Below are positions 4,303 through 16,002 of a DNA stretch of 64,000 bases, one piece after another; position 1 is the first letter of the stretch; each line of letters opens with the position of its first letter. The notes under the pieces were generated by a model. That model ran no database searches. It saw only the letters and a list, made by a program, of their open reading frames with translations, and was not told the DNA's origin. The stretch comes from an uncultured Candidatus Saccharibacteria bacterium (lineage in GTDB: Bacteria > Patescibacteriota > Minisyncoccia > Phycocordibacterales > PALSA-1337): positions 84,151 to 148,150 of the forward strand of contig CAYPPJ010000001.1 in assembly GCA_964412585.1 (NCBI GenBank). Direction: 5' to 3'. The position numbers and the translations under genes were made by a program.

Positions 4303-5577
4303 TTATATCGGAAGGTTTGAAGGTGCCTCGGACTTCTTTGATGGCAAGCGTTCCAACGTAGGGGTTGCTGCAACAGAGCCAGGGAAATGAAAAAGTGTTG
4401 CTAACTCCTCACTATTGAGCACAAACGGCTTTTTGTCTGCTGGAGCATAAAAATACGAGCGACGTTTGTACAGCGCCAAAGCCTCCTCTGAGTAACGATT
4501 GCGGCGAATATCTTTGTAGTCATGCCACGGGTCTGTGATCTTCGCATGCCAGACATCACCTTTTGGCTTGAATCCATTGAGGGACTCTGAGCTAAAATGT
4601 TTGAAGCTTGAAATCGTACCGCCGGCGCCAACGATACGGTTGAATACATCGCTTTTACCAATGTATAACGCGCGAATACCGACATCAAATCCTTGTTTGG
4701 TGACACTACGTTCAACAGCTTCAATAATCGCTTGTTCACCCTTAGAAATCGTCGGGAGTTTTGCATAACCACTATCAGGATTGATCTCACCCGAGACTTT
4801 TGATTTTGCGTCACGGATCAAGATATCATTAACAATTTTCTTTGCTTGATCTTGCCACGCATCAGTCTTCTCAAAAAAACTTCCGGGTTTTGGCTGTTCT
4901 TTTTTGTGCGCACGCATGAGTATTTGTATCCAAATCTGTTGATTGGGTCCGACACTTCCGAGAAACTCGAGCATTGGTGTCAACGGATCAATCTTGAACT
5001 CTTCCTTCGGATCCTTATCAAGACCATAGTCAACATACGTCTTTATTGGATACGCATCGGGTTTTGTTAAGGTAAATTCATTTGCCCATATTTTCATCGT
5101 TTTTGGGTCAAAGTGAACTGATTGCGCATAGTCCCCACTTTCATGGACTTCTATACCTGGAAATTGCGAATACAATCCGGTGATCACACCGCCCTTGCGT
5201 CTGTCTTCGGTCCATATGAAAAATTTGACCTTGCCTTCGATAGAAACCATTTCGAGCGAATACCAGGGGCGCACTTCACCCTTCCAATATTGTGCAAACC
5301 AGCTTCCGTCAGAAGTATTGTGAAGCGATTGGAGAAATACTTCCATGGCCAATGGAGATTTGAACGTATCCTTGGGTAGTTTGAGTTCAAGGACGGTGTA
5401 TTTCAGTGAAAGAAAGAATTTGGATCGCACGTAACGAACCCAGAGTGGCCAAAAAATGAGAGCAAGGAGGATGACGAGCGCAACGGGGGCAATGAAAATT
5501 GCGTATTGTACCGCCTGTGGAATAATGATTGACTGCAAATCACTGGTCAATACAGAAAATAGCTGGTCAATGGACAT
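4303..5577 (-). CDS. Conserved hypothetical protein with N-terminal TM anchor (424 aa)
   Basis: Long ORF with an N-terminal hydrophobic segment. It has no P-loop or other motif I can assign. The C-terminus ends ...LNSEELATLFHFPG.... Confidence 0.55.
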   Translation of the reverse strand: MSIDQLFSVLTSDLQSIIIPQAVQYAIFIAPVALVILLALIFWPLWVRYVRSKFFLSLKYTVLELKLPKDTFKSPLAMEVFLQSLHNTSDGSWFAQYWKGEVRPWYSLEMVSIEGKVKFFIWTEDRRKGGVITGLYSQFPGIEVHESGDYAQSVHFDPKTMKIWANEFTLTKPDAYPIKTYVDYGLDKDPKEEFKIDPLTPMLEFLGSVGPNQQIWIQILMRAHKKEQPKPGSFFEKTDAWQDQAKKIVNDILIRDAKSKVSGEINPDSGYAKLPTISKGEQAIIEAVERSVTKQGFDVGIRALYIGKSDVFNRIVGAGGTISSFKHFSSESLNGFKPKGDVWHAKITDPWHDYKDIRRNRYSEEALALYKRRSYFYAPADKKPFVLNSEELATLFHFPGSVAATPTLERLPSKKSEAPSNLPI

Positions 5578-5737
5578 GTCAATATTATATCAATAACTCG
5601 TTAACTAACAAAGCGGCTCGTACGAGTACCTCAGAGACACGGAAACTTTGCGCACAAAGTTTCCTAGTCCTCGCCGATTTTGTGCTCAAAATCGGCTGTG
5701 GATGTCTCTTCAGTACTGTACTACACCGCTGTGTTAG

Positions 5738-6775
5738 TTAGGCAGATACAGAGTATTTGCCGTCCTTGTCCTTCTTGAAATATTTTGGATTCTGCAAATT
5801 GACTGCAATAGTGTTTTCCTTGACGTAGCGCTCCTTCATAACCTTGGCAACAATCTCTTCCTTGGTCATTGGGCCATGCTTTTCAAGCACGAGGCGGATA
5901 ACGTCACGAACGATGCCAGGCGCATATCCCCATTCTGCAAGAGCGTAGAGACCACGGCCGACAAGTACGAAACGAGGATCCTTGATGAGTTCATTGTGGG
6001 TGGTTGCAACATGAGCCTTTTTCTTGAACATAACCATGATCTGTTTTGCAACATCACGGAAATGGATCGGAGAACCGTGCTTACGGATAACGAGGAAAGC
6101 GTAATCGCGCATACCCTTGGTCTTGATATTTGAAGAATGTGATGCACCCCAATCACCGAGAGCATTGACGCCAATAGCTTTTGAGAGCTTGAGCCAGCGC
6201 TTCATGATCTCCTGATTCTTGTAGCGTTCTGAAACGCCCTCGAGATGCTGGAGAAACTTGTTGATCATTTCTGACTCAGGAAGAAGATCTTGCGTGTTGA
6301 GGTTTGTATACAATTTGCGGAGCGCGATCTCAACTTGAGAAGCGAGTTCCTCATTGACGTGCCAGCGGTGATTGAAATCATCATCTTCCTTGCGCTTCTT
6401 GAATGGTTCACCAATAACCAAAAGGAAATGAACATGATTCTGAAGGCTCTTATCCTTTGAAACATGGCCGAGAAAATCTTCTTCCACGACAATGCCGCCC
6501 AATGCATGAAGCGTATTTTCGAGCTCAGCAAAAACAGCCTTTTCAAGCTTGTATTCATCTGACTTGCGAACCATACCAAGAGCATAGTTTTCGATCTGAC
6601 GGACACGCTCACGAGTAATGCCATACTTTTTACCGATAGCATCAAGAGTCATACGGCGAGTGTCAGAACCGAGTCCGTAGCGATAGATAATCACATCACG
6701 GGCACGATCAGGGAGAGATGAGAGGAGACGCTTAACGATCTGCTTGGGTTTGAAGGAAATTGTTGAAGAAGCCAT
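5738..6775 (-). CDS. Sigma-70 region-4-like HTH fused to two HARE-HTH-like winged-helix modules; not a complete sigma factor
   Basis: The N-terminus LPDRARDVIIYRYGL...TLDAIGKKYGITRERVRQIE is a region-4 HTH. Downstream, HGSPIHFRDVAKQI...LVGRGLYALAEW and GPMTKEEIVAKVMKE...DGKYSVS resemble HARE-HTH modules. Confidence 0.6.
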   Translation of the reverse strand: MASSTISFKPKQIVKRLLSSLPDRARDVIIYRYGLGSDTRRMTLDAIGKKYGITRERVRQIENYALGMVRKSDEYKLEKAVFAELENTLHALGGIVVEEDFLGHVSKDKSLQNHVHFLLVIGEPFKKRKEDDDFNHRWHVNEELASQVEIALRKLYTNLNTQDLLPESEMINKFLQHLEGVSERYKNQEIMKRWLKLSKAIGVNALGDWGASHSSNIKTKGMRDYAFLVIRKHGSPIHFRDVAKQIMVMFKKKAHVATTHNELIKDPRFVLVGRGLYALAEWGYAPGIVRDVIRLVLEKHGPMTKEEIVAKVMKERYVKENTIAVNLQNPKYFKKDKDGKYSVSA

Positions 6776-7030: not shown

Positions 7031-10000
7031 CTACACGACGACAATATTCACGAGTTTATTTGGTACAACAATAATCTTCTTCACTTCCTTCCCTTCTATC
7101 CACTTCAGGGCCTCAGGAATGGCCTTGGCACGGTTCTCAAGTTCCTCCTGTGATGAATCTGTAGGAACTGTGAATGAGCCACGCATTTTGCCATTTATTT
7201 GGACGATAATAGTGACCTCATCATCGGCTGCTAGAGTAGCATCATAGACTGGCCATGGTGCACAATTGATAGATTTCTTATTACCAAGTGATGCCCACAA
7301 TTCTTCAGTAACATGTGGTGCAAAAGGTGCGAGCAACTGGAGCAATACGCCATATTGCTCGCAATCGATAACCTGTACCTTCTCAAGTTCGTTTACAGTG
7401 ATCATAAGGGTGCTTATTGCTGTGTTGAAACGCATAGCTTCGATATCATCACTTACTTTTTTGATCGCTTTATGAATAATCTTATTCACCAGTATAACAT
7501 CACCGACTTTTTCATCGGTTTGAGCAACTACTTTTTCACGTAATTTCCACACACGTTCAATAAATCTGCGTACGCCTGCAATGTTATTTGTATCCCAGGC
7601 AATCGGCTGATCAAATGGTCCCATAAACATCTCATAGAGACGCAGCGAATCGGCTCCGACAGTGGCTACTATGCTGTCAGGATTGATCACATTGCCTTTT
7701 GACTTCGACATTTTGACTCCGCCTTCAGCCAAAATAAGTCCATGAGAGGTGCGCTTGGTATATGGCTCATCGGTCGGCACCAATCCGAGATCAAAAAGGA
7801 ACTTGTGCCAGAAGCGTGAATAGAGCAAATGCAATGTCGTGTGCTCCATGCCGCCGTTATACCAATCAACGGGAGTCCAATAGTCGAGATTCTTTTTGTC
7901 AGCAAATACTTTTTTGTTTTTAGGATCTACATAGCGCAAATAATACCAACTCGAGCCCGCCCAGTTTGGCATGGTATCAGTCTCACGCTGTGCTGGTCCC
8001 TTACATTGAGGACACTTTGTATTTACCCATGCAGTAATCGCTGCCAAAGGAGATTCGCCCGTTTCGGTTGGCTTGTAGTTTTTGACTGAAGGTAATTTGA
8101 TCGGCAAATCCTTTTCGGGTACCGGAACAAGGCCACACTTCTGACAGTTAACAACTGGTATTGGCTCACCCCAATAGCGCTGACGTGAGAAAATCCAATC
8201 GCGGAGTTTGAATGTGGTGATCCACTTTCCACCGACTGATTCGGTAATCTCTTTTTTGACCAATGACGACTCCTTACCACTGAATGATCCGGAATTTTCC
8301 AATATACCGTCACCAACAAAAGATGCGTCCGGCGAAACAAAGCGCTGCCAGAATGCCCAATCAGTGATTTTTGGATACAGAGCAGTCGGAATATCTTTTC
8401 GTGCTACCCACGAAATCTGCTGATGGTTGGACTCATGCTCAGCAACAGGTTGTTGTGCGCCGCTCTTCAACTCAAAATAATATCCATCCAACATGGCTGA
8501 ACGATTTTCATTTTTGTGTGGCGCAAAATGTTTTGCGTAGACATGACCGCCGAGTTTTTTCACCAACACAAAATCGGTAAATCCAGTCTCCTCTATAATC
8601 TCACGCTTTGCAGCCTCAACAGGATCTTCACCTGGATCAATGCCTCCAATGACAAAGGTCGTCCACCCATGTTTCGGCGCTTTGAGACAGAGGAATTCGT
8701 CCTTTTCCCAGTGCTTAACAATAGCTAGGATGCATTCACGTGCCACAGTCTTCACCCCAGGCCTCGATGCAAAATCACCTTGAGTGACATTGATAAGTGG
8801 TGCAACCACTTCTCGTACTGGTAATCCATATTTTTTTGCAAACATACCATCACGCTCATCATGTGCAGGAACAGCCATAACTGCGCCTTTACCATAATCT
8901 GCCAAGACGTAGTCAGCTATCCACACAGGAACTTCTTCCTTTTTTGCCGGGTTAATTGCTTTTACACCTTTTAACTCTACTCCTGTTTTTTCTTTTGTCG
9001 CATCTGTGCGTTCCATTTCTGATTCTTTTTTGACCTTGGCAATGTATAATTCAACCTCAGATTTATTTTCTACAACTGAAAGAAGCTCTTTAACCAGAGT
9101 ATGTTCAGGTGCAAGCACAACATAGGTCACACCAAAAAGAGTATCGGGACGGGTCGTGAAGACTTTAATCCTACGCGAACCAACCATACGAGGAACGAAC
9201 GTATCCTTGAGGAGCTCCTCAGTTTTTTTGTATCTCAAACTCTCATCTTGTTCTACCTTAAACTGTCCGGTCTCAACATATTTCAACAGCGACTCCATCG
9301 GGTACCCAGGTTGCGATTTTTCGGATCGTTCAGTTTGCAGATAATATTCATACGGTGATTGTTCAGCCGAAATTGTGCCTTTCTCATCAGTAAATGCAAG
9401 ACCGTAAATAAATTTAGCCTTTGAGGCACCTCCGACACCTTTCAAAAACTTGAGTGTGTATTCAATAACCTCTTCATCAGTAGCGCGACCACTCTTTGGA
9501 TTTGCTAATTTTCGAATATGATGAATAACACCACCATCTGTTGGCCACTTTTCAACCCAAAACACATGATCAGTTGAAATAGTTGGAATACCTGTCTTTT
9601 TGAAATAATATTCCGACTTCAATCGAGCATTCGCGAGATGATCATTACCTTCAACCAAATCAGAATCATCCAACGGCGGAAGATCATTTAGCGAAATGAG
9701 TTCCAATTGACTCACATCCTTGAGACAGGTCTTGACCATCATTATTTTTGCTTCGTTTCTCGTTCCAATAAGAACCCGTCGCTTCTGGACATCAGACTTA
9801 ATGGAAAATTCAAGTTCAGCCCCCTCACTCTTCCCTATCCAATTTCGCTGCTGCTCCTTGATCGCGTCCTTCCAATCCAACAAAGGTTTACCAAATGACT
9901 CAGCGGTGATAGCCGGATTCAGAAACTTTGCCCACACGTATCTCTGTGAATCAGGCGAGACAAAGGCAGTCATTTCTTCTTTTGAGAGCCACACCACCTC

Positions 10001-11089
10001 ATGGTTGGCCTGCTCTTCAGCGGTAATCTCATTTCGATCACCATTTTGTAATTCGAAATAGAGCGCATCAAAATGTGCATAACGATTTACATTTTTTGGC
10101 ACATGGAAAAACTTGGCATCAACTTTTCCGAGAGCACGAATAAACGCAGGATTTTTATATCCGGTCTCTTCGACAATCTCTGCAATCGCTGCTTCTTCGG
10201 GAGTCTGCTTCCCTTCGACCCCACCTGTGATAAGCGTCTGCCAATCTACCTTCTTCCATTTGAGACCAATATATTTATCCTCTGACCAATGCTTCACAAT
10301 CGCGACAATAGCTTTGCGCTCAACAAAAGGAAGCTCGTGTCTGACTGCACCAGGCTCTGTCGTCTGCGTAAAACAAGGCACATCATCAGTACCTTCGAGA
10401 ATGTCTCCTTTTGGCGTTACCCGTGCATTCAGACTATTCAATAGTCGATCAGCATATTTCGTAATAGCCAGCATCCATTGCTCTTTCTCTCGCTTTTCGA
10501 CTGGCGTACCGCAACGTTCACATTTTCCATCGATAACCTCTTCGTTGGCGAGACCGATCAGGTCTTTTGGACACCAATTGATGGTCATCTTCTTTTTGTA
10601 CGCCAGTCCTTTTTTGAAAAATTGAAGGAAAATCCACTGCGTCCACTTGTAATAAGCAGGATCTGTGGTGTTTATCTCCCTCGACCAATCAAATGAAATA
10701 CCGATAGACTGAATTTGCTTTCGAAATGTATCGGAGTTTTTCTTTGTTACAACACGTGGGTCCTGACCAGTCTTAATAGCATAGTTCTCTGTAGGCAATC
10801 CGAAGGCATCCCATCCAATCGGATACAAGACATTGTAACCCTGCGCGCGACGTTTGCGAGCAATAACATCCATAGCAATATATGGACGCGGATGTCCCAC
10901 ATGCAACCCGTCCCCAGATGGATACGGAAATTCAATGAGACCGTAGAATTTTTTCTTCGTTGAATCTTCTTTTACTTGATAGAGTTTCTTTTTCTCCCAA
11001 TATTTTTGCCACTTCGGCTCAATCTTTGTGTGGTCGTATGCACCGATGGTAGAAGCCATTTTTGTCGCTTTTGCTGAAGCTTTTATCAT
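7031..11089 (-). CDS. leuS: Leucyl-tRNA synthetase carrying three large insertions (two NUDIX-like, one Ham1/ITPase-like)
   Basis: HIGH motif HVGH, editing-domain signature TTRPDTLFG, KMSKS motif VKMSKS and the RDWIFSRQRYWGEPIP stretch are all present. The protein is 1352 aa, against a typical length near 860. Alternative start at 11059 (MASTIG...). Confidence 0.9.
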   Translation of the reverse strand: MIKASAKATKMASTIGAYDHTKIEPKWQKYWEKKKLYQVKEDSTKKKFYGLIEFPYPSGDGLHVGHPRPYIAMDVIARKRRAQGYNVLYPIGWDAFGLPTENYAIKTGQDPRVVTKKNSDTFRKQIQSIGISFDWSREINTTDPAYYKWTQWIFLQFFKKGLAYKKKMTINWCPKDLIGLANEEVIDGKCERCGTPVEKREKEQWMLAITKYADRLLNSLNARVTPKGDILEGTDDVPCFTQTTEPGAVRHELPFVERKAIVAIVKHWSEDKYIGLKWKKVDWQTLITGGVEGKQTPEEAAIAEIVEETGYKNPAFIRALGKVDAKFFHVPKNVNRYAHFDALYFELQNGDRNEITAEEQANHEVVWLSKEEMTAFVSPDSQRYVWAKFLNPAITAESFGKPLLDWKDAIKEQQRNWIGKSEGAELEFSIKSDVQKRRVLIGTRNEAKIMMVKTCLKDVSQLELISLNDLPPLDDSDLVEGNDHLANARLKSEYYFKKTGIPTISTDHVFWVEKWPTDGGVIHHIRKLANPKSGRATDEEVIEYTLKFLKGVGGASKAKFIYGLAFTDEKGTISAEQSPYEYYLQTERSEKSQPGYPMESLLKYVETGQFKVEQDESLRYKKTEELLKDTFVPRMVGSRRIKVFTTRPDTLFGVTYVVLAPEHTLVKELLSVVENKSEVELYIAKVKKESEMERTDATKEKTGVELKGVKAINPAKKEEVPVWIADYVLADYGKGAVMAVPAHDERDGMFAKKYGLPVREVVAPLINVTQGDFASRPGVKTVARECILAIVKHWEKDEFLCLKAPKHGWTTFVIGGIDPGEDPVEAAKREIIEETGFTDFVLVKKLGGHVYAKHFAPHKNENRSAMLDGYYFELKSGAQQPVAEHESNHQQISWVARKDIPTALYPKITDWAFWQRFVSPDASFVGDGILENSGSFSGKESSLVKKEITESVGGKWITTFKLRDWIFSRQRYWGEPIPVVNCQKCGLVPVPEKDLPIKLPSVKNYKPTETGESPLAAITAWVNTKCPQCKGPAQRETDTMPNWAGSSWYYLRYVDPKNKKVFADKKNLDYWTPVDWYNGGMEHTTLHLLYSRFWHKFLFDLGLVPTDEPYTKRTSHGLILAEGGVKMSKSKGNVINPDSIVATVGADSLRLYEMFMGPFDQPIAWDTNNIAGVRRFIERVWKLREKVVAQTDEKVGDVILVNKIIHKAIKKVSDDIEAMRFNTAISTLMITVNELEKVQVIDCEQYGVLLQLLAPFAPHVTEELWASLGNKKSINCAPWPVYDATLAADDEVTIIVQINGKMRGSFTVPTDSSQEELENRAKAIPEALKWIEGKEVKKIIVVPNKLVNIVVV

Positions 11090-11117
11090 AGGTCAAATAA
11101 TAGCTCAAAAAACCTTT

Positions 11118-11154
11118 ATTTACAAAAAATCGCCACCTGCCTTACGGCAGATGG
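11118..11154 (-). terminator. Candidate intrinsic terminator on the minus strand
   Basis: CCATCTGCC-gtaa-GGCAGGTGG, read on the minus strand, is followed by GATTTTTTGTAAAT. It lies downstream of the small-peptide pair and upstream of leuS. Confidence 0.45.
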
Positions 11155-11394
11155 CAACTGACATCTGATGAAACTACGGTGCACTGGGAGGCAGATCATT
11201 TGACTGCTTGAACGCTCGTCGCACTGACGCGAGAAAACTCTCGGCGGTACGCGGCGTACTTCCAGGTGCCATGTCACTGCGAGTGGCGTGGGACTGGAAC
11301 GACAGGAACCGCGTAAAACTCATGGGTTGTGAGGAGAAGCCGGAGCGGCTCTGCCCCATTTTTTTTCGCGTAATAGGTGTAAAGATCATATTTG

Positions 11395-11559
11395 TTAATG
11401 GGTGTAGTAGGCGTACCAGTAGTAGCAGAGCCCAGTGGCCAACACTGCACAAACAATCACTACACCTAGAACCCAGCGTCCTTGGCGAGCAAACGTGTTG
11501 TTTTCATCGAGTGTTGATGGCGCTCGATCCCAAAAAGGGTGAAGGGGTATCTTGTTCAT
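11395..11559 (-). CDS. Small predicted membrane peptide (54 aa), second gene of a two-peptide module
   Basis: MNKIPLHPFWDRAPSTLDENNTFARQGRWVLGVVIVCAVLATGLCYYWYAYYTH. It has one TM helix. Its ATG sits 1 nt after the stop of the upstream peptide. Local GC is above the window average. It is below the 60-aa cutoff of the supplied ORF track. Confidence 0.35.
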   Translation of the reverse strand: MNKIPLHPFWDRAPSTLDENNTFARQGRWVLGVVIVCAVLATGLCYYWYAYYTH

Positions 11560-11560
11560 A

Positions 11561-11707
11561 TCACGCCTTCCGGCACGACGAGGTGACTTGATTATCCGGC
11601 AGCAAGAATGCGAACATCACAACTGCTGTTAAACAGACAGCGAGCAGTACGCATCCGAGCGCGACTTTCACTCCAATCAATGATAGTACTCCGACACTAC
11701 TTGTCAT
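11561..11707 (-). CDS. Small predicted membrane peptide (48 aa) with a strong Shine-Dalgarno
   Basis: MTSSVGVLSLIGVKVALGCVLLAVCLTAVVMFAFLLPDNQVTSSCRKA. GGAGGA lies 4 nt upstream of the ATG. A terminator lies about 240 nt downstream on the same strand. Confidence 0.35.
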   Translation of the reverse strand: MTSSVGVLSLIGVKVALGCVLLAVCLTAVVMFAFLLPDNQVTSSCRKA

Positions 11708-11818
11708 GAATCCTCCAGGGTTTGACTGAGTTTAATGTTGAAAAACCAATGGAATACACGCCCTACGACAACGTACATTCCGCCGAGATTTATAGCATAT
11801 TTAGGTTGTACTGGGAAG

Positions 11819-14550: not shown

Positions 14551-16002
14551 TTATCGAGGCTTCATCAATGGAAACATCTGTGTCTCACGGAGTGGCTTAT
14601 CGATCAAGAATGCAAACAATCTCTCACCAAATCCAAACCCACATGTTGGTGGCATACCATGTTCGAGCATCTCCACGAACTCATGGTCGGGCATCATGGC
14701 TTCGGTATCGCCCTTGTCGATAAGTTTCTGCTGTTCAGCGAAACGGTTTGCCTGATCGATAGGATCATTGAGCTCAGAATAGCCTCGGCCGAGCTCGCTG
14801 CCAGCGATAATGGGCTGGAACATTTGGACGACAGGTTTTCCTACAACACTCTTGGCCAACGGCGCAACAAGAACAGGGTGATTGATGAGAAATGCAGGAC
14901 CAGTGATGTTTTTACGGCAATATTTCCACAAGGTATCAGTCAAACGTTCCCGATTGGTACCGTCATATTTAACCTTGAGACCGTTGAGCTTATTCATCAT
15001 ATCCTTTTCTGATGCTGAAGTGATATCTATGCCCGTTTGTTTCTTTATCTCTTCTGCATAATCAATCTTCACCCATTCATCCGCAAGATCAAAGGTGTGT
15101 CCACGAGTCGTGAACTTTGTGGTGCCAAAAACTTCGGAAGCAATCTTTCGATACATCTCCTGAACAAGCTTCATGCCATCATTGTAGTCAGCATATGACC
15201 AATAGAACTCCATATTGGTGAACTCTTGCGCATGTTCAGGACTGGTGCCTTCATTGCGATAGACACGACCAATCTCAAAGGTCTTTGGAAAACCTCCGGC
15301 CATCAACCTCTTTTGCCACAATTCCCCTACCGAAATACGCAAATAGACATCGAGGTCATAGTCATTATGGTGAGTTTTGAATGGAGTCGCTTCGGCACCA
15401 CCTGTAGTCGTCTCCAGCGTTGGTGTTTCGACTTCCAAAAATCCATTGTCATTCATAAATTGCCTCGTAACGTTCCAAAACTTTGCTTTTTTGAGAAAAA
15501 CATCACGAAGCTCTGGTGTCATAATGAAATCCAAATATCTCTTTCGGAATTTTTCATCAGGATCTGTGATACCATGCCATTTTTCCGGCAATGGTAGCAA
15601 TGACTTTGAAGCCATGGTCCATGATGTCACCAAAATACTCTGTTCACCTCTTTGGGTCGTGAAGCATGTACCTGAGACACTGATAATGTCACCAATATCA
15701 ACGGCGTTCGTGAATAATTCAAATAAATCGGGCTTCAAAATATCCTTCTTTATAACTGCTTGAAAAGTAGCCTTGCCATCATCAAGTACAACAAATGAAA
15801 TGGCGCCCGCACCGCGAATAGCCATAATACGGCCAGCAAGATTAATTACCTTTTGAGACTTTTCGTATTCAGCAAAATGGGCCTTGGCATCCTTGAGACA
15901 GTGGTCGCGAGGGACTTTTGCTGGATATGCTTCCATGCTGGCCTTTTTGAGAAGGTCGATCTTGGCGAGCCTGGTTGCGCGAAGTTCGTCAATTGAAGCC
16001 AT
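14551..16002 (-). CDS. lysS: Lysyl-tRNA synthetase, class II
   Basis: An N-terminal OB anticodon-binding domain is followed by a class II core (motifs 1-3, e.g. FRNEG-like YRNEGTS and GGFGFGERL). Confidence 0.9.
   Translation of the reverse strand: MASIDELRATRLAKIDLLKKASMEAYPAKVPRDHCLKDAKAHFAEYEKSQKVINLAGRIMAIRGAGAISFVVLDDGKATFQAVIKKDILKPDLFELFTNAVDIGDIISVSGTCFTTQRGEQSILVTSWTMASKSLLPLPEKWHGITDPDEKFRKRYLDFIMTPELRDVFLKKAKFWNVTRQFMNDNGFLEVETPTLETTTGGAEATPFKTHHNDYDLDVYLRISVGELWQKRLMAGGFPKTFEIGRVYRNEGTSPEHAQEFTNMEFYWSYADYNDGMKLVQEMYRKIASEVFGTTKFTTRGHTFDLADEWVKIDYAEEIKKQTGIDITSASEKDMMNKLNGLKVKYDGTNRERLTDTLWKYCRKNITGPAFLINHPVLVAPLAKSVVGKPVVQMFQPIIAGSELGRGYSELNDPIDQANRFAEQQKLIDKGDTEAMMPDHEFVEMLEHGMPPTCGFGFGERLFAFLIDKPLRETQMFPLMKPR

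Follow-up and report, generated by a model that had tools for sequence, protein, structure and literature searches.

The leuS gene in positions 84,151 to 148,150 of contig CAYPPJ010000001.1 (the window, a stretch of 64,000 nucleotides whose own numbering is used throughout) encodes a bacterial-type leucyl-tRNA synthetase (LeuRS) that carries three hydrolase-fold modules inside its open reading frame (ORF): a variant NUDIX domain, a divergent Ham1/ITPase-fold domain, and a canonical NUDIX domain. Comparison of this protein with its relatives demonstrates, at the level of alignments and profiles, that a pool of at least four hydrolase families fills five insertion hot spots of LeuRS combinatorially, with quick turnover. 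Members of the same families also occur as separate genes, several of them immediately upstream of leuS. The parts of the gene, in the order of the protein, are as follows.

7031..11089 (-), leuS ORF, bacterial-type LeuRS with three inserted modules, 1352 aa plus stop, ATG start
10430..11089 (-), residues 1-220, N-terminal half of the catalytic domain, with HIGH (HVGH, nt 10892-10903) and ZN-1
9884..10429 (-), residues 221-402, insertion 1 at site A, variant NUDIX, of which residues 255-400 are the NUDIX domain proper
9782..9883 (-), residues 403-436, LeuRS core between insertions 1 and 2 (LLDWKDAIKEQQRNWIGKSEGAELEFSIKSDVQK)
9170..9781 (-), residues 437-640, insertion 2 at site B, divergent Ham1/ITPase-fold module
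8744..9169 (-), residues 641-782, N-terminal part of the CP1 editing domain, with TTRPDT (nt 9140-9157) and AHDERD (nt 8849-8866)
8324..8743 (-), residues 783-922, insertion 3 at site C, canonical NUDIX, box GGIDPGEDPVEAAKREIIEETGF at nt 8579-8647
7034..8323 (-), residues 923-1352, end of CP1, second half of the catalytic domain, anticodon-binding domain and C-terminal domain

The host protein is a LeuRS with all core elements in place, as a first-pass annotation made from the letters of the window alone had stated. Model TIGR00396 (leuS_bact) scores 966.5 bits against the whole protein, compared to an equivalog cutoff of 548.4, and its match falls into four stretches, which means that the synthetase is interrupted three times. 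Pfam recognizes tRNA-synt_1, tRNA-synt_1_2 (the editing domain, PF13603, 192 bits), Anticodon_1, and NUDIX (82.9 bits, in two stretches) in the full-length sequence. The core motifs are found at residues 63-66 (HVGH), 645-650 (TTRPDT), 742-747 (AHDERD), and 1126-1130 (KMSKS, nt 7700-7714). In an alignment of 69 family members the HIGH, KMSKS, and CP1 motifs are invariant or nearly so, T650 and D744 strictly so. Two CxxC knuckles (nt 8135-8146 and 8003-8014) correspond to insertion sites D and E, described below, both of which are empty in this protein. The best explanation of these features is that the gene encodes a working LeuRS, its activity predicted from the intact motifs, of a bacterium from the Patescibacteria (candidate phyla radiation, CPR), probably a Paceibacteria-like one.

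A structure model of residues 1-1200 has a mean pLDDT (predicted local distance difference test) of 87.4 and a pTM (predicted template modeling score) of 0.72, with pLDDT of about 87-98 over the three inserts, and its core superposes on bacterial LeuRS structures with target-normalized TM scores of 0.6-0.72. Alignment to an insert-free relative, P0074 (843 aa; identifiers beginning with P or L are our own), bounds the inserts at residues 221-402, 442-637, and 783-922, and the borders proposed in the first-pass annotation lie within a few residues of these. When mapped on the LeuRS of Thermus thermophilus (Tt), insertion 1 falls between the helix that follows ZN-1 and the helix that leads into CP1 (Tt about 208-210), insertion 2 in the loop directly before TTRPDT (Tt about 236), and insertion 3 in a variable loop late in CP1 (Tt about 365-380). 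The model and this mapping thus bear out the earlier proposal of separate loop domains: the predicted structure shows each insert as a domain of its own, modeled with confidence and set in a loop of a LeuRS that is normal in other respects, with synthetic and editing motifs intact. At the extreme N-terminus, residues 1-14 (MIKASAKATKMAST) are predicted to be disordered, with pLDDT below 50. Relatives begin near the second Met, residue 11, so that the true start may lie 30 nt downstream of the annotated ATG.

Insertion 3 had been described as carrying a fully canonical NUDIX box, and it does. Scanned alone, nt 8315-8767 scores 55.1 bits (E 1e-14) against Pfam NUDIX (PF00293), whose gathering threshold is 21.1, and the box at residues 815-837 matches GX5EX7REUXEEXGU in full. 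In an alignment of 24 canonical modules from different LeuRS proteins, G35, G36, E41, R49, E50, E53, E54, and G56 are invariant while mean identity is 41%; a box that stays invariant at such low overall identity is the pattern expected of an active enzyme. The canonical NUDIX module is therefore probably an active pyrophosphohydrolase, as judged from its residues. Its nearest solved relatives are uncharacterized MutT/nudix proteins, AvrM14, hydrolases of diadenosine tetraphosphate (Ap4A; 1F3Y, 3I7U), and Dcp2, at E values of no better than 1e-9 to 1e-6. Among hydrolases of diadenosine polyphosphates (ApnA), the NUDIX modules have weak best matches to 3I7U, 1F3Y, and 1KT9. An aromatic residue, a putative ApnA signature, stands 16-18 residues after the box. 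A word-index search with insertion 3 alone returned a single fragment.

Insertion 1 is a NUDIX domain of a different class. The segment assigned to NUDIX in the first-pass annotation, nt 9896-10426, scores 39.6 bits (E 6e-10) against PF00293, above the same threshold, which upholds the assignment. Its box, GGVEGKQTPEEAAIAEIVEETGY (residues 289-311, nt 10157-10225), differs from the consensus by Glu7 to Gln and Arg15 to Ala, and so fails the box pattern that insertion 3 matches. The loss of the arginine had been recognized; the accompanying statement that the catalytic glutamates are kept is right for E16, E19, and E20 and wrong for Glu7. Across 24 aligned variant modules, with a mean identity of 65%, Gln7 is invariant, Arg15 is missing, E16, E19, and E20 are present, and many aromatic and basic residues are invariant as well, which makes this the most conserved class of module. 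It is remote from solved structures (best E 2e-4). Insertions 1 and 3 are paralogous, with 36% identity over 139 aa (E 2e-31), and common to both NUDIX classes are an extended N-terminus and the motif (H)K-x-x-N-R. Insertion 1 resembles the free-standing protein P0139 even more closely, at 55% identity over 165 aa. By sequence, insertion 1 is a member of the NUDIX fold whose catalytic competence is uncertain. Two box residues have been lost from what is nevertheless the most conserved module, so the role of the variant NUDIX may be one of binding or regulation.

Insertion 2 was proposed to be Ham1-like, with several catalytic positions substituted. Its motifs include GTRNEAK (nt 9746-9766), LVEG, ANARLKS, and STDH (nt 9566-9577). 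For the query itself the Pfam evidence is marginal: nt 9170-9781, scanned alone, scores 23.4 bits (E 6e-5) against Ham1p_like (PF01725), with a cutoff of 22.5. The wider family removes much of this doubt, with PF01725 matching 14 of 17 members (best E 2.4e-10) and a profile of the family retrieving from the PDB the dITP/XTP pyrophosphatases 6WWD (9e-5) and 3TQU (1.5e-3). The AlphaFold model of the insert has a pLDDT of 94.3 and a pTM of 0.87. Searched against the PDB with Foldseek, it returned Ham1, RdgB, or ITPA structures for all of the top 31 matches, with E values down to 1e-11 and TM scores of 0.6-0.79 over about 205 columns; the next matches are Maf proteins. Together these results give solid support, through the predicted structure, for a Ham1/ITPase fold over the whole domain, and the Ham1-like assignment stands.

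The family to which insertion 2 belongs has kept some of the expected residues and lost others. Aligned to 6WWD and 3TQU, its invariant residues are T443, N445, K448, E480, N487, A488, K491, and D507. It retains the G-T-x-N-x-x-K motif, the E-G acidic motif, N-A-x-x-K, and the second Asp of DDSG, the first Asp being replaced by Thr. The C-terminal S-H-R motif, which we take to be the purine-recognition or specificity motif of ITPases, is absent from the alignment of the Ham1-like family, where the equivalent region has R-Y. NCBIfam equivalog models score far below their cutoffs against the query: TIGR00042 at 26.7 (cutoff 145) and a second model at 30.3 (cutoff 234). Insertion 2 is, by these sequence criteria, an ITPase-fold protein and not an orthologue of RdgB/ITPase. 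With the phosphate- and metal-binding half kept and S-H-R absent, the module probably takes a ligand other than ITP or XTP (inosine or xanthosine triphosphate), or only binds. The free-standing 202-aa protein P0121 aligns with 94% of the insert at 56% identity.

The first-pass annotation had asked whether orthologs share the insertions. They are lineage-wide, modular, and mirrored by genes beside leuS. A whole-protein search returned 120 LeuRS proteins at E = 0, with lengths from 843 to 1722 aa; because the homologue sets were retrieved with insert-bearing queries, the insert frequencies that follow are biased upwards. Named relatives belong to the Patescibacteria/CPR (Taylorbacteria, Paceibacter, Parcubacteria, Pacebacteria). 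Precomputed Pfam lists for these 120 homologues contain HAD, alpha/beta-hydrolase, or Ham1 domains besides NUDIX. Inserts occur at five hot spots, in the numbering of P0074: A at about 228, B at about 260, C at about 400, D at about 471, and E at about 521, the last two flanking the two CxxC knuckles after CP1. The 207 inserts cluster into four families that are shared among sites.

NUDIX modules, 142 copies, at sites C, A, and B
Ham1-like modules, 25 copies, at sites A and B
Ser_hydrolase or alpha/beta-hydrolase modules, 25 copies, at sites B, D, and A
HAD modules, 12 copies, at site E

A tandem pair of NUDIX modules is frequent at site A. The 121 proteins show 43 architectures, with up to four or five modules in one protein. 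The architecture of the query, a variant NUDIX at A, a Ham1-like module at B, and a canonical NUDIX at C, is found among the 121 only in the query and its 100%-identical database copy. Some inserts have no Pfam match: those of P0014 (residues 560-915), P0034, P0022, and P0030 at site C and that of P0041 at site D. The insert of P0014 includes a segment of about 190 aa that resembles a nucleotidyltransferase by eye (G-G...D-V-D), and the others are orphan modules of about 100-150 aa. With these orphan types, the repertoire of modules exceeds four families.

Architecture changes faster than the synthetase that carries it. Of the 2021 protein pairs whose cores are at least 70% identical, 1685 have different architectures, and differences are seen even at 92-94% core identity. 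P0015 and P0074, with a core identity of 92%, have one NUDIX and none, respectively, and P0073 and P0086, also at 92%, have different NUDIX classes at the same site. The query and P0002 (core identity 85%) differ by the Ham1-like module only; the two inserts they have in common are 88% and 97% identical, so that shared inserts are conserved no less than the core. Alignment of the modules indicates clearly that they are under purifying selection. Recent hopping of modules between sites was considered and rejected: most modules group with others from their own site, and identity across sites reaches 65-69% at best. Relocation is therefore old, and what happens rapidly is that a given site gains, loses, or exchanges a module. 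Only short repeats at chance level were found flanking the inserts.

Among species-representative genomes the closest relatives are metagenome-assembled genomes (MAGs) of Patescibacteria/Paceibacterota. A LeuRS with a single NUDIX module, of the canonical box type, at site C is also encoded by gut MAGs (loci L004, L009, L018-L021, L023, L025, L033) to which their submitters gave the labels Bacilli, Clostridia, or Muribaculaceae; these modules are 37-48% identical to those of CPR.

The same module families are found as free-standing genes, and six independent examples lie just upstream of leuS, at distances of 1-77 nt and, in one case, about 285 nt. Free-standing relatives of the Ham1-like insert are 195-212 aa long. 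P0121 is encoded on the same strand as leuS, and its neighborhood has the gene order of the window: YchF ... leuS - Sigma70_r4/HARE-HTH - DUF8128 - YceG. The module genes and their positions are as follows.

P0121, Ham1-like, 29 nt upstream of leuS
L118, two-domain gene, alpha/beta-hydrolase plus Ham1-like, ending about 77 nt upstream of leuS
L124, Ham1-like, with the start of leuS about 285 nt downstream of the module gene
P0171, NUDIX, 1 nt upstream of leuS
P0166, NUDIX, 2 nt upstream of leuS, the LeuRS being insert-free to the end of the contig
P0141, NUDIX, 10 nt upstream of leuS
P0139, NUDIX, 2.4 kb upstream of an insert-free leuS, in a same-strand array
P0148, NUDIX, no aminoacyl-tRNA synthetase (aaRS) gene within 5 kb
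P0122, Ham1-like, not adjacent to leuS

At L118 (1284-2546, with leuS starting at about 2600), a Ser_hydrolase-like and a Ham1-like domain are fused to each other, and the LeuRS has no inserts at A or B. The array at L085 (1482-10389, GCA_023245955.1) encodes on one strand MetRS, an unknown protein, TatD, the variant NUDIX P0139, two small ORFs, a YfbR-like HD nucleotidase, a membrane protein, a generic NUDIX, and an insert-free leuS (823 aa); the array looks like a cluster for nucleotide salvage or house-cleaning that is joined to leuS. A strict complementarity of cis and trans, in which every insert-free LeuRS would have a module gene upstream, holds for L085, L089, and L118 and fails for the closest insert-free relatives, P0074 and P0093, and was rejected as a rule.

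Searches aimed at the modules themselves lead back to LeuRS. A profile of the variant NUDIX, run against 1.84 billion representative sequences, found 281 matches at E <= 1e-10; the best 149 of these 281 include 105 LeuRS, 35 short, Met-initiated free-standing proteins of both classes, and one ProRS. In a metagenome scan with the Ham1-like alignment, about 28 of the 33 loci found have the module in frame within a LeuRS ORF. The Ham1 subfamily and the NUDIX family described here are therefore largely dedicated to LeuRS, whether in cis or as an upstream gene. In the ProRS (P0253, 643 aa; tRNA-synt_2b, HGTP_anticodon, ProRS-C_1) the NUDIX module occupies residues 398-538, between the anticodon-binding and C-terminal domains, so the module family is not strictly confined to LeuRS. 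Four Met-initiated proteins of 273-287 aa (P0223, P0239, P0266, P0272) consist of a fragment of the CP1 editing domain followed by NUDIX; they could be free-standing proteins, split LeuRS genes, or fragments produced by gene calling.

The reading we favor, with slightly more confidence than doubt, is that the modules are accessory hydrolases associated with LeuRS, supplied in trans by a neighboring gene or in cis as an inserted domain. They would act on small nucleotide-type molecules near the synthetase and leave the chemistry of aminoacylation unchanged. Ap4A is a side product of the reaction of an aminoacyl-adenylate with ATP. A dinucleoside polyphosphate such as Ap4A would be the leading, if weak, guess for the substrate of the canonical NUDIX, a guess drawn from the ApnA hydrolases and RNA-decapping enzymes that are its nearest characterized relatives. 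The Ham1-like module would handle its non-ITP/XTP ligand, or merely hold it, and the variant NUDIX would serve in binding or regulation. The first-pass annotation had suggested that insertion 1 and the Ham1-like module might be non-catalytic, which is reasonable; the roles it put forward, such as those involving Ap4A, adenylate analogues, or sensing, are hypothetical. A broader proposal sees LeuRS in Paceibacteria-type CPR as the hub of dedicated, rapidly diversifying hydrolase modules that act on LeuRS-linked nucleotides (ApnA, toxins that mimic leucyl-adenylate, or nucleotide sensing), with a single NUDIX in some other lineages; we offer it tentatively and think it rather doubtful.

Several observations weigh against a functional tie to LeuRS. 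P0074 and P0093, the closest insert-free relatives, have the gene order of the window and no module gene at the locus. LeuRS can therefore do without modules, and these may have no link to its chemistry. Free-standing copies such as P0122 and P0148 are not near leuS. Similarity to Ap4A hydrolases is weak, centered on the box at E values of 1e-5 to 1e-9, and the TatD and YfbR-like HD nucleotidase genes of the L085 array would fit general salvage or house-cleaning equally well.

These points lead to the strongest rival account, possible though in our view unlikely: the modules may be ordinary enzymes that sanitize or salvage the nucleotide pool of a genome-reduced CPR scavenger, uncoupled from LeuRS and placed in or by leuS only for constitutive co-expression and for loops that tolerate insertion. 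All four module families have classic small-molecule house-cleaning hydrolase folds, and at L085 modules are joined with TatD and a YfbR-like 5'-nucleotidase. The modules are dispensable in close relatives, the insertion sites are all peripheral loops, and proximity of a neighboring gene could itself favor insertion. Such an account is hard to reconcile with a Ham1-like subfamily that is almost exclusively LeuRS-embedded or leuS-adjacent and a NUDIX family found mostly in LeuRS. It also leaves aside that four unrelated families converge on one host while the second aaRS of the window (14551-16002) has normal length, and that the variant NUDIX and Ham1-like modules have lost residues expected of house-cleaning enzymes yet are highly conserved.

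An improbable alternative is immunity built into its own target, in which the modules destroy or sequester toxins that mimic leucyl-adenylate (Leu-AMP) or other nucleotide-type inhibitors of LeuRS. The rapid shuffling of hydrolase chemistries would then reflect an arms race; the combinatorial diversity and fast turnover recall conflict systems, and the link is specific to LeuRS. Precedents exist both for natural Leu-AMP mimics, since TM84 of agrocin 84 is one and inhibits LeuRS, and for enzymes dedicated to detoxifying aminoacyl-nucleotide toxins, namely the MccE2 GNAT, the MccF peptidase, and the MccH HIT phosphoramidase (PMC8323819). NCBIfam model NF040702, for IleRS with an N-acetyltransferase domain, is a precedent only, as the query scores far below its cutoff. 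However, no toxin is known for these organisms, and the pyrophosphate linkages that are cleaved by NUDIX and ITPase folds are absent from Leu-AMP mimics. No toxin or biosynthetic gene cluster context was found around leuS, and PADLOC returned only a weak match of insertion 3, 24.5 bits to the NUDIX of the candidate system PDC-S07, with nothing for insertions 1 and 2. With this single weak match, assignment to a known anti-phage defense system was rejected.

Still less probable is that the variant NUDIX and Ham1-like modules are non-catalytic sensors, binding a nucleotide signal and tuning aminoacylation or editing allosterically, or recruiting a partner. NUDIX-fold sensors exist, among them NrtR and the NUDT9-H domain of TRPM2, and the dITP sensor KomC of the KomBC system, which has a Ham1 fold, is among the fold matches of insertion 2. 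With Glu7 and Arg15 missing from its box, the variant NUDIX is still the most conserved module at 65% mean identity, and the Ham1-like module has neither S-H-R nor the first Asp of DDSG. Against this, the variant box keeps three metal-binding Glu residues and the Ham1-like module keeps S/T-x-N-x-x-K, Lys, and Asp, so that both may still be catalytic, and sporadic presence in close relatives would be odd for a core regulatory device. Finally, patchy presence at conserved sites of an essential gene is superficially intein-like, but an artefact or selfish element can be dismissed: the frame is uninterrupted and GC content and skew run smoothly across the whole ORF, core and inserts fold confidently, the same in-frame junctions recur in dozens of independent assemblies (NCBI, ENA, JGI, Logan), which disposes of the assembly chimera that the first-pass annotation had held open and of a pseudogene, and an intein or mobile element is rejected on the purifying selection on module residues, complete hydrolase folds, absence of flanking repeats, and lack of any Hint or intein Pfam match over the whole protein at E <= 1.

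Directly downstream of leuS in the window, at 4303-6775 (-), are two genes that are conserved at this position in all syntenic relatives. One encodes a 345-aa protein with Sigma70_r4 and HARE-HTH domains. The product of the other, 424 aa long, has no Pfam match at E <= 0.001, although the corresponding proteins of relatives match DUF8128. The 730-nt gap between leuS and ychF (11090-11818) has a GC content of 0.50-0.53, compared to about 0.43, and no convincing ORF. No leader RNA or T-box was found there, as Rfam gives no match even at E <= 1. Syntenic relatives have a gap of similar size 5' of leuS, conserved only in the last 45 nt or so before the start, in a manner like a promoter or ribosome-binding site. 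The second aaRS mentioned above is a class II enzyme of 483 aa encoded on the reverse strand, with tRNA-synt_2 and OB anticodon domains and no inserted domains; its normal length shows that expansion is not general to the synthetases of this genome.

The aaRSs rank with the most conserved enzymes known, and much new biology has come from their accessory domains. In the family described here, whole enzymes are inserted into an essential synthetase at five defined loops, an arrangement that alternates with a module gene beside leuS. By the Rosetta-stone argument, NUDIX, ITPase-fold, HAD, and alpha/beta-hydrolase proteins would cooperate with LeuRS. Natural pairs with and without a module (the query and P0002, P0015 and P0074) lend themselves to direct experiments, and the tolerance of LeuRS loops for insertions of 150-340 residues is useful for protein engineering. 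The modules also give a new handle on the physiology of uncultured CPR. If they act on LeuRS-derived nucleotides or on toxins directed at LeuRS, they would constitute a new kind of proofreading or immunity built into a synthetase; if LeuRS is indeed a hub, they would point to previously unrecognized quality control, immunity, or regulation of a synthetase inside the enzyme itself. The architecture is visible in public databases through automatic Pfam labels, yet appears to be undescribed. The literature searched, in which subscription journals are thinly covered, yielded no account of an aaRS with internal NUDIX or Ham1 domains, an absence that is not proof. We know of no case of multiple nucleotide-hydrolase enzymes internal to a synthetase, nor of a combinatorial insertion system that alternates between cis and trans.

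Each component can be compared with known systems. Insertion 2 shares its whole-domain fold and its phosphate and metal motifs with the Ham1/RdgB/ITPA proteins (PF01725; 1K7K, 2Q16, 2J4E, 4BNQ, 6WWD), but is only 11-19% identical to them, has Thr for the first Asp of DDSG, lacks S-H-R, and is embedded in LeuRS or adjacent to it, whereas they are encoded by stand-alone housekeeping genes. KomC of the Kongming system KomBC (9V0G, 9XVC) is likewise a Ham1-fold domain within a larger assembly, one that binds dITP and is not a house-cleaning enzyme, and matches in fold with TM 0.66-0.73; insertion 2 differs in its 11-13% identity to KomC, and has no SIR2 partner, defense-gene context, or PADLOC match. 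Insertion 3 shares PF00293 and the full box with the ApnA and decapping NUDIX enzymes that give its best PDB matches (Aquifex aeolicus 3I7U, lupin 1F3Y, AvrM14, Dcp2, RppH), but the similarity lies mostly in the box, and the module has its own N-terminal extension (F-x-Q/T-T-x-E-P-G...P-F-V-E-R) and (H)K-x-x-N-R motif. Canonical bacterial LeuRS (T. thermophilus 1H3N/2BTE, Escherichia coli 4AQ7, Neisseria gonorrhoeae 6Q89) has the same domain order and motifs as the query, which has in addition about 510 residues and three enzyme-fold loop domains that are absent from solved LeuRS structures. Other aaRSs with accessory domains, such as IleRS with N-acetyltransferase (NF040702) and eukaryotic synthetases with appended domains, likewise use a synthetase as scaffold for a non-synthetase domain. 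Unlike those appended domains, the modules described here are internal insertions, come from several hydrolase families, vary between close relatives, and are interchangeable with neighboring genes.

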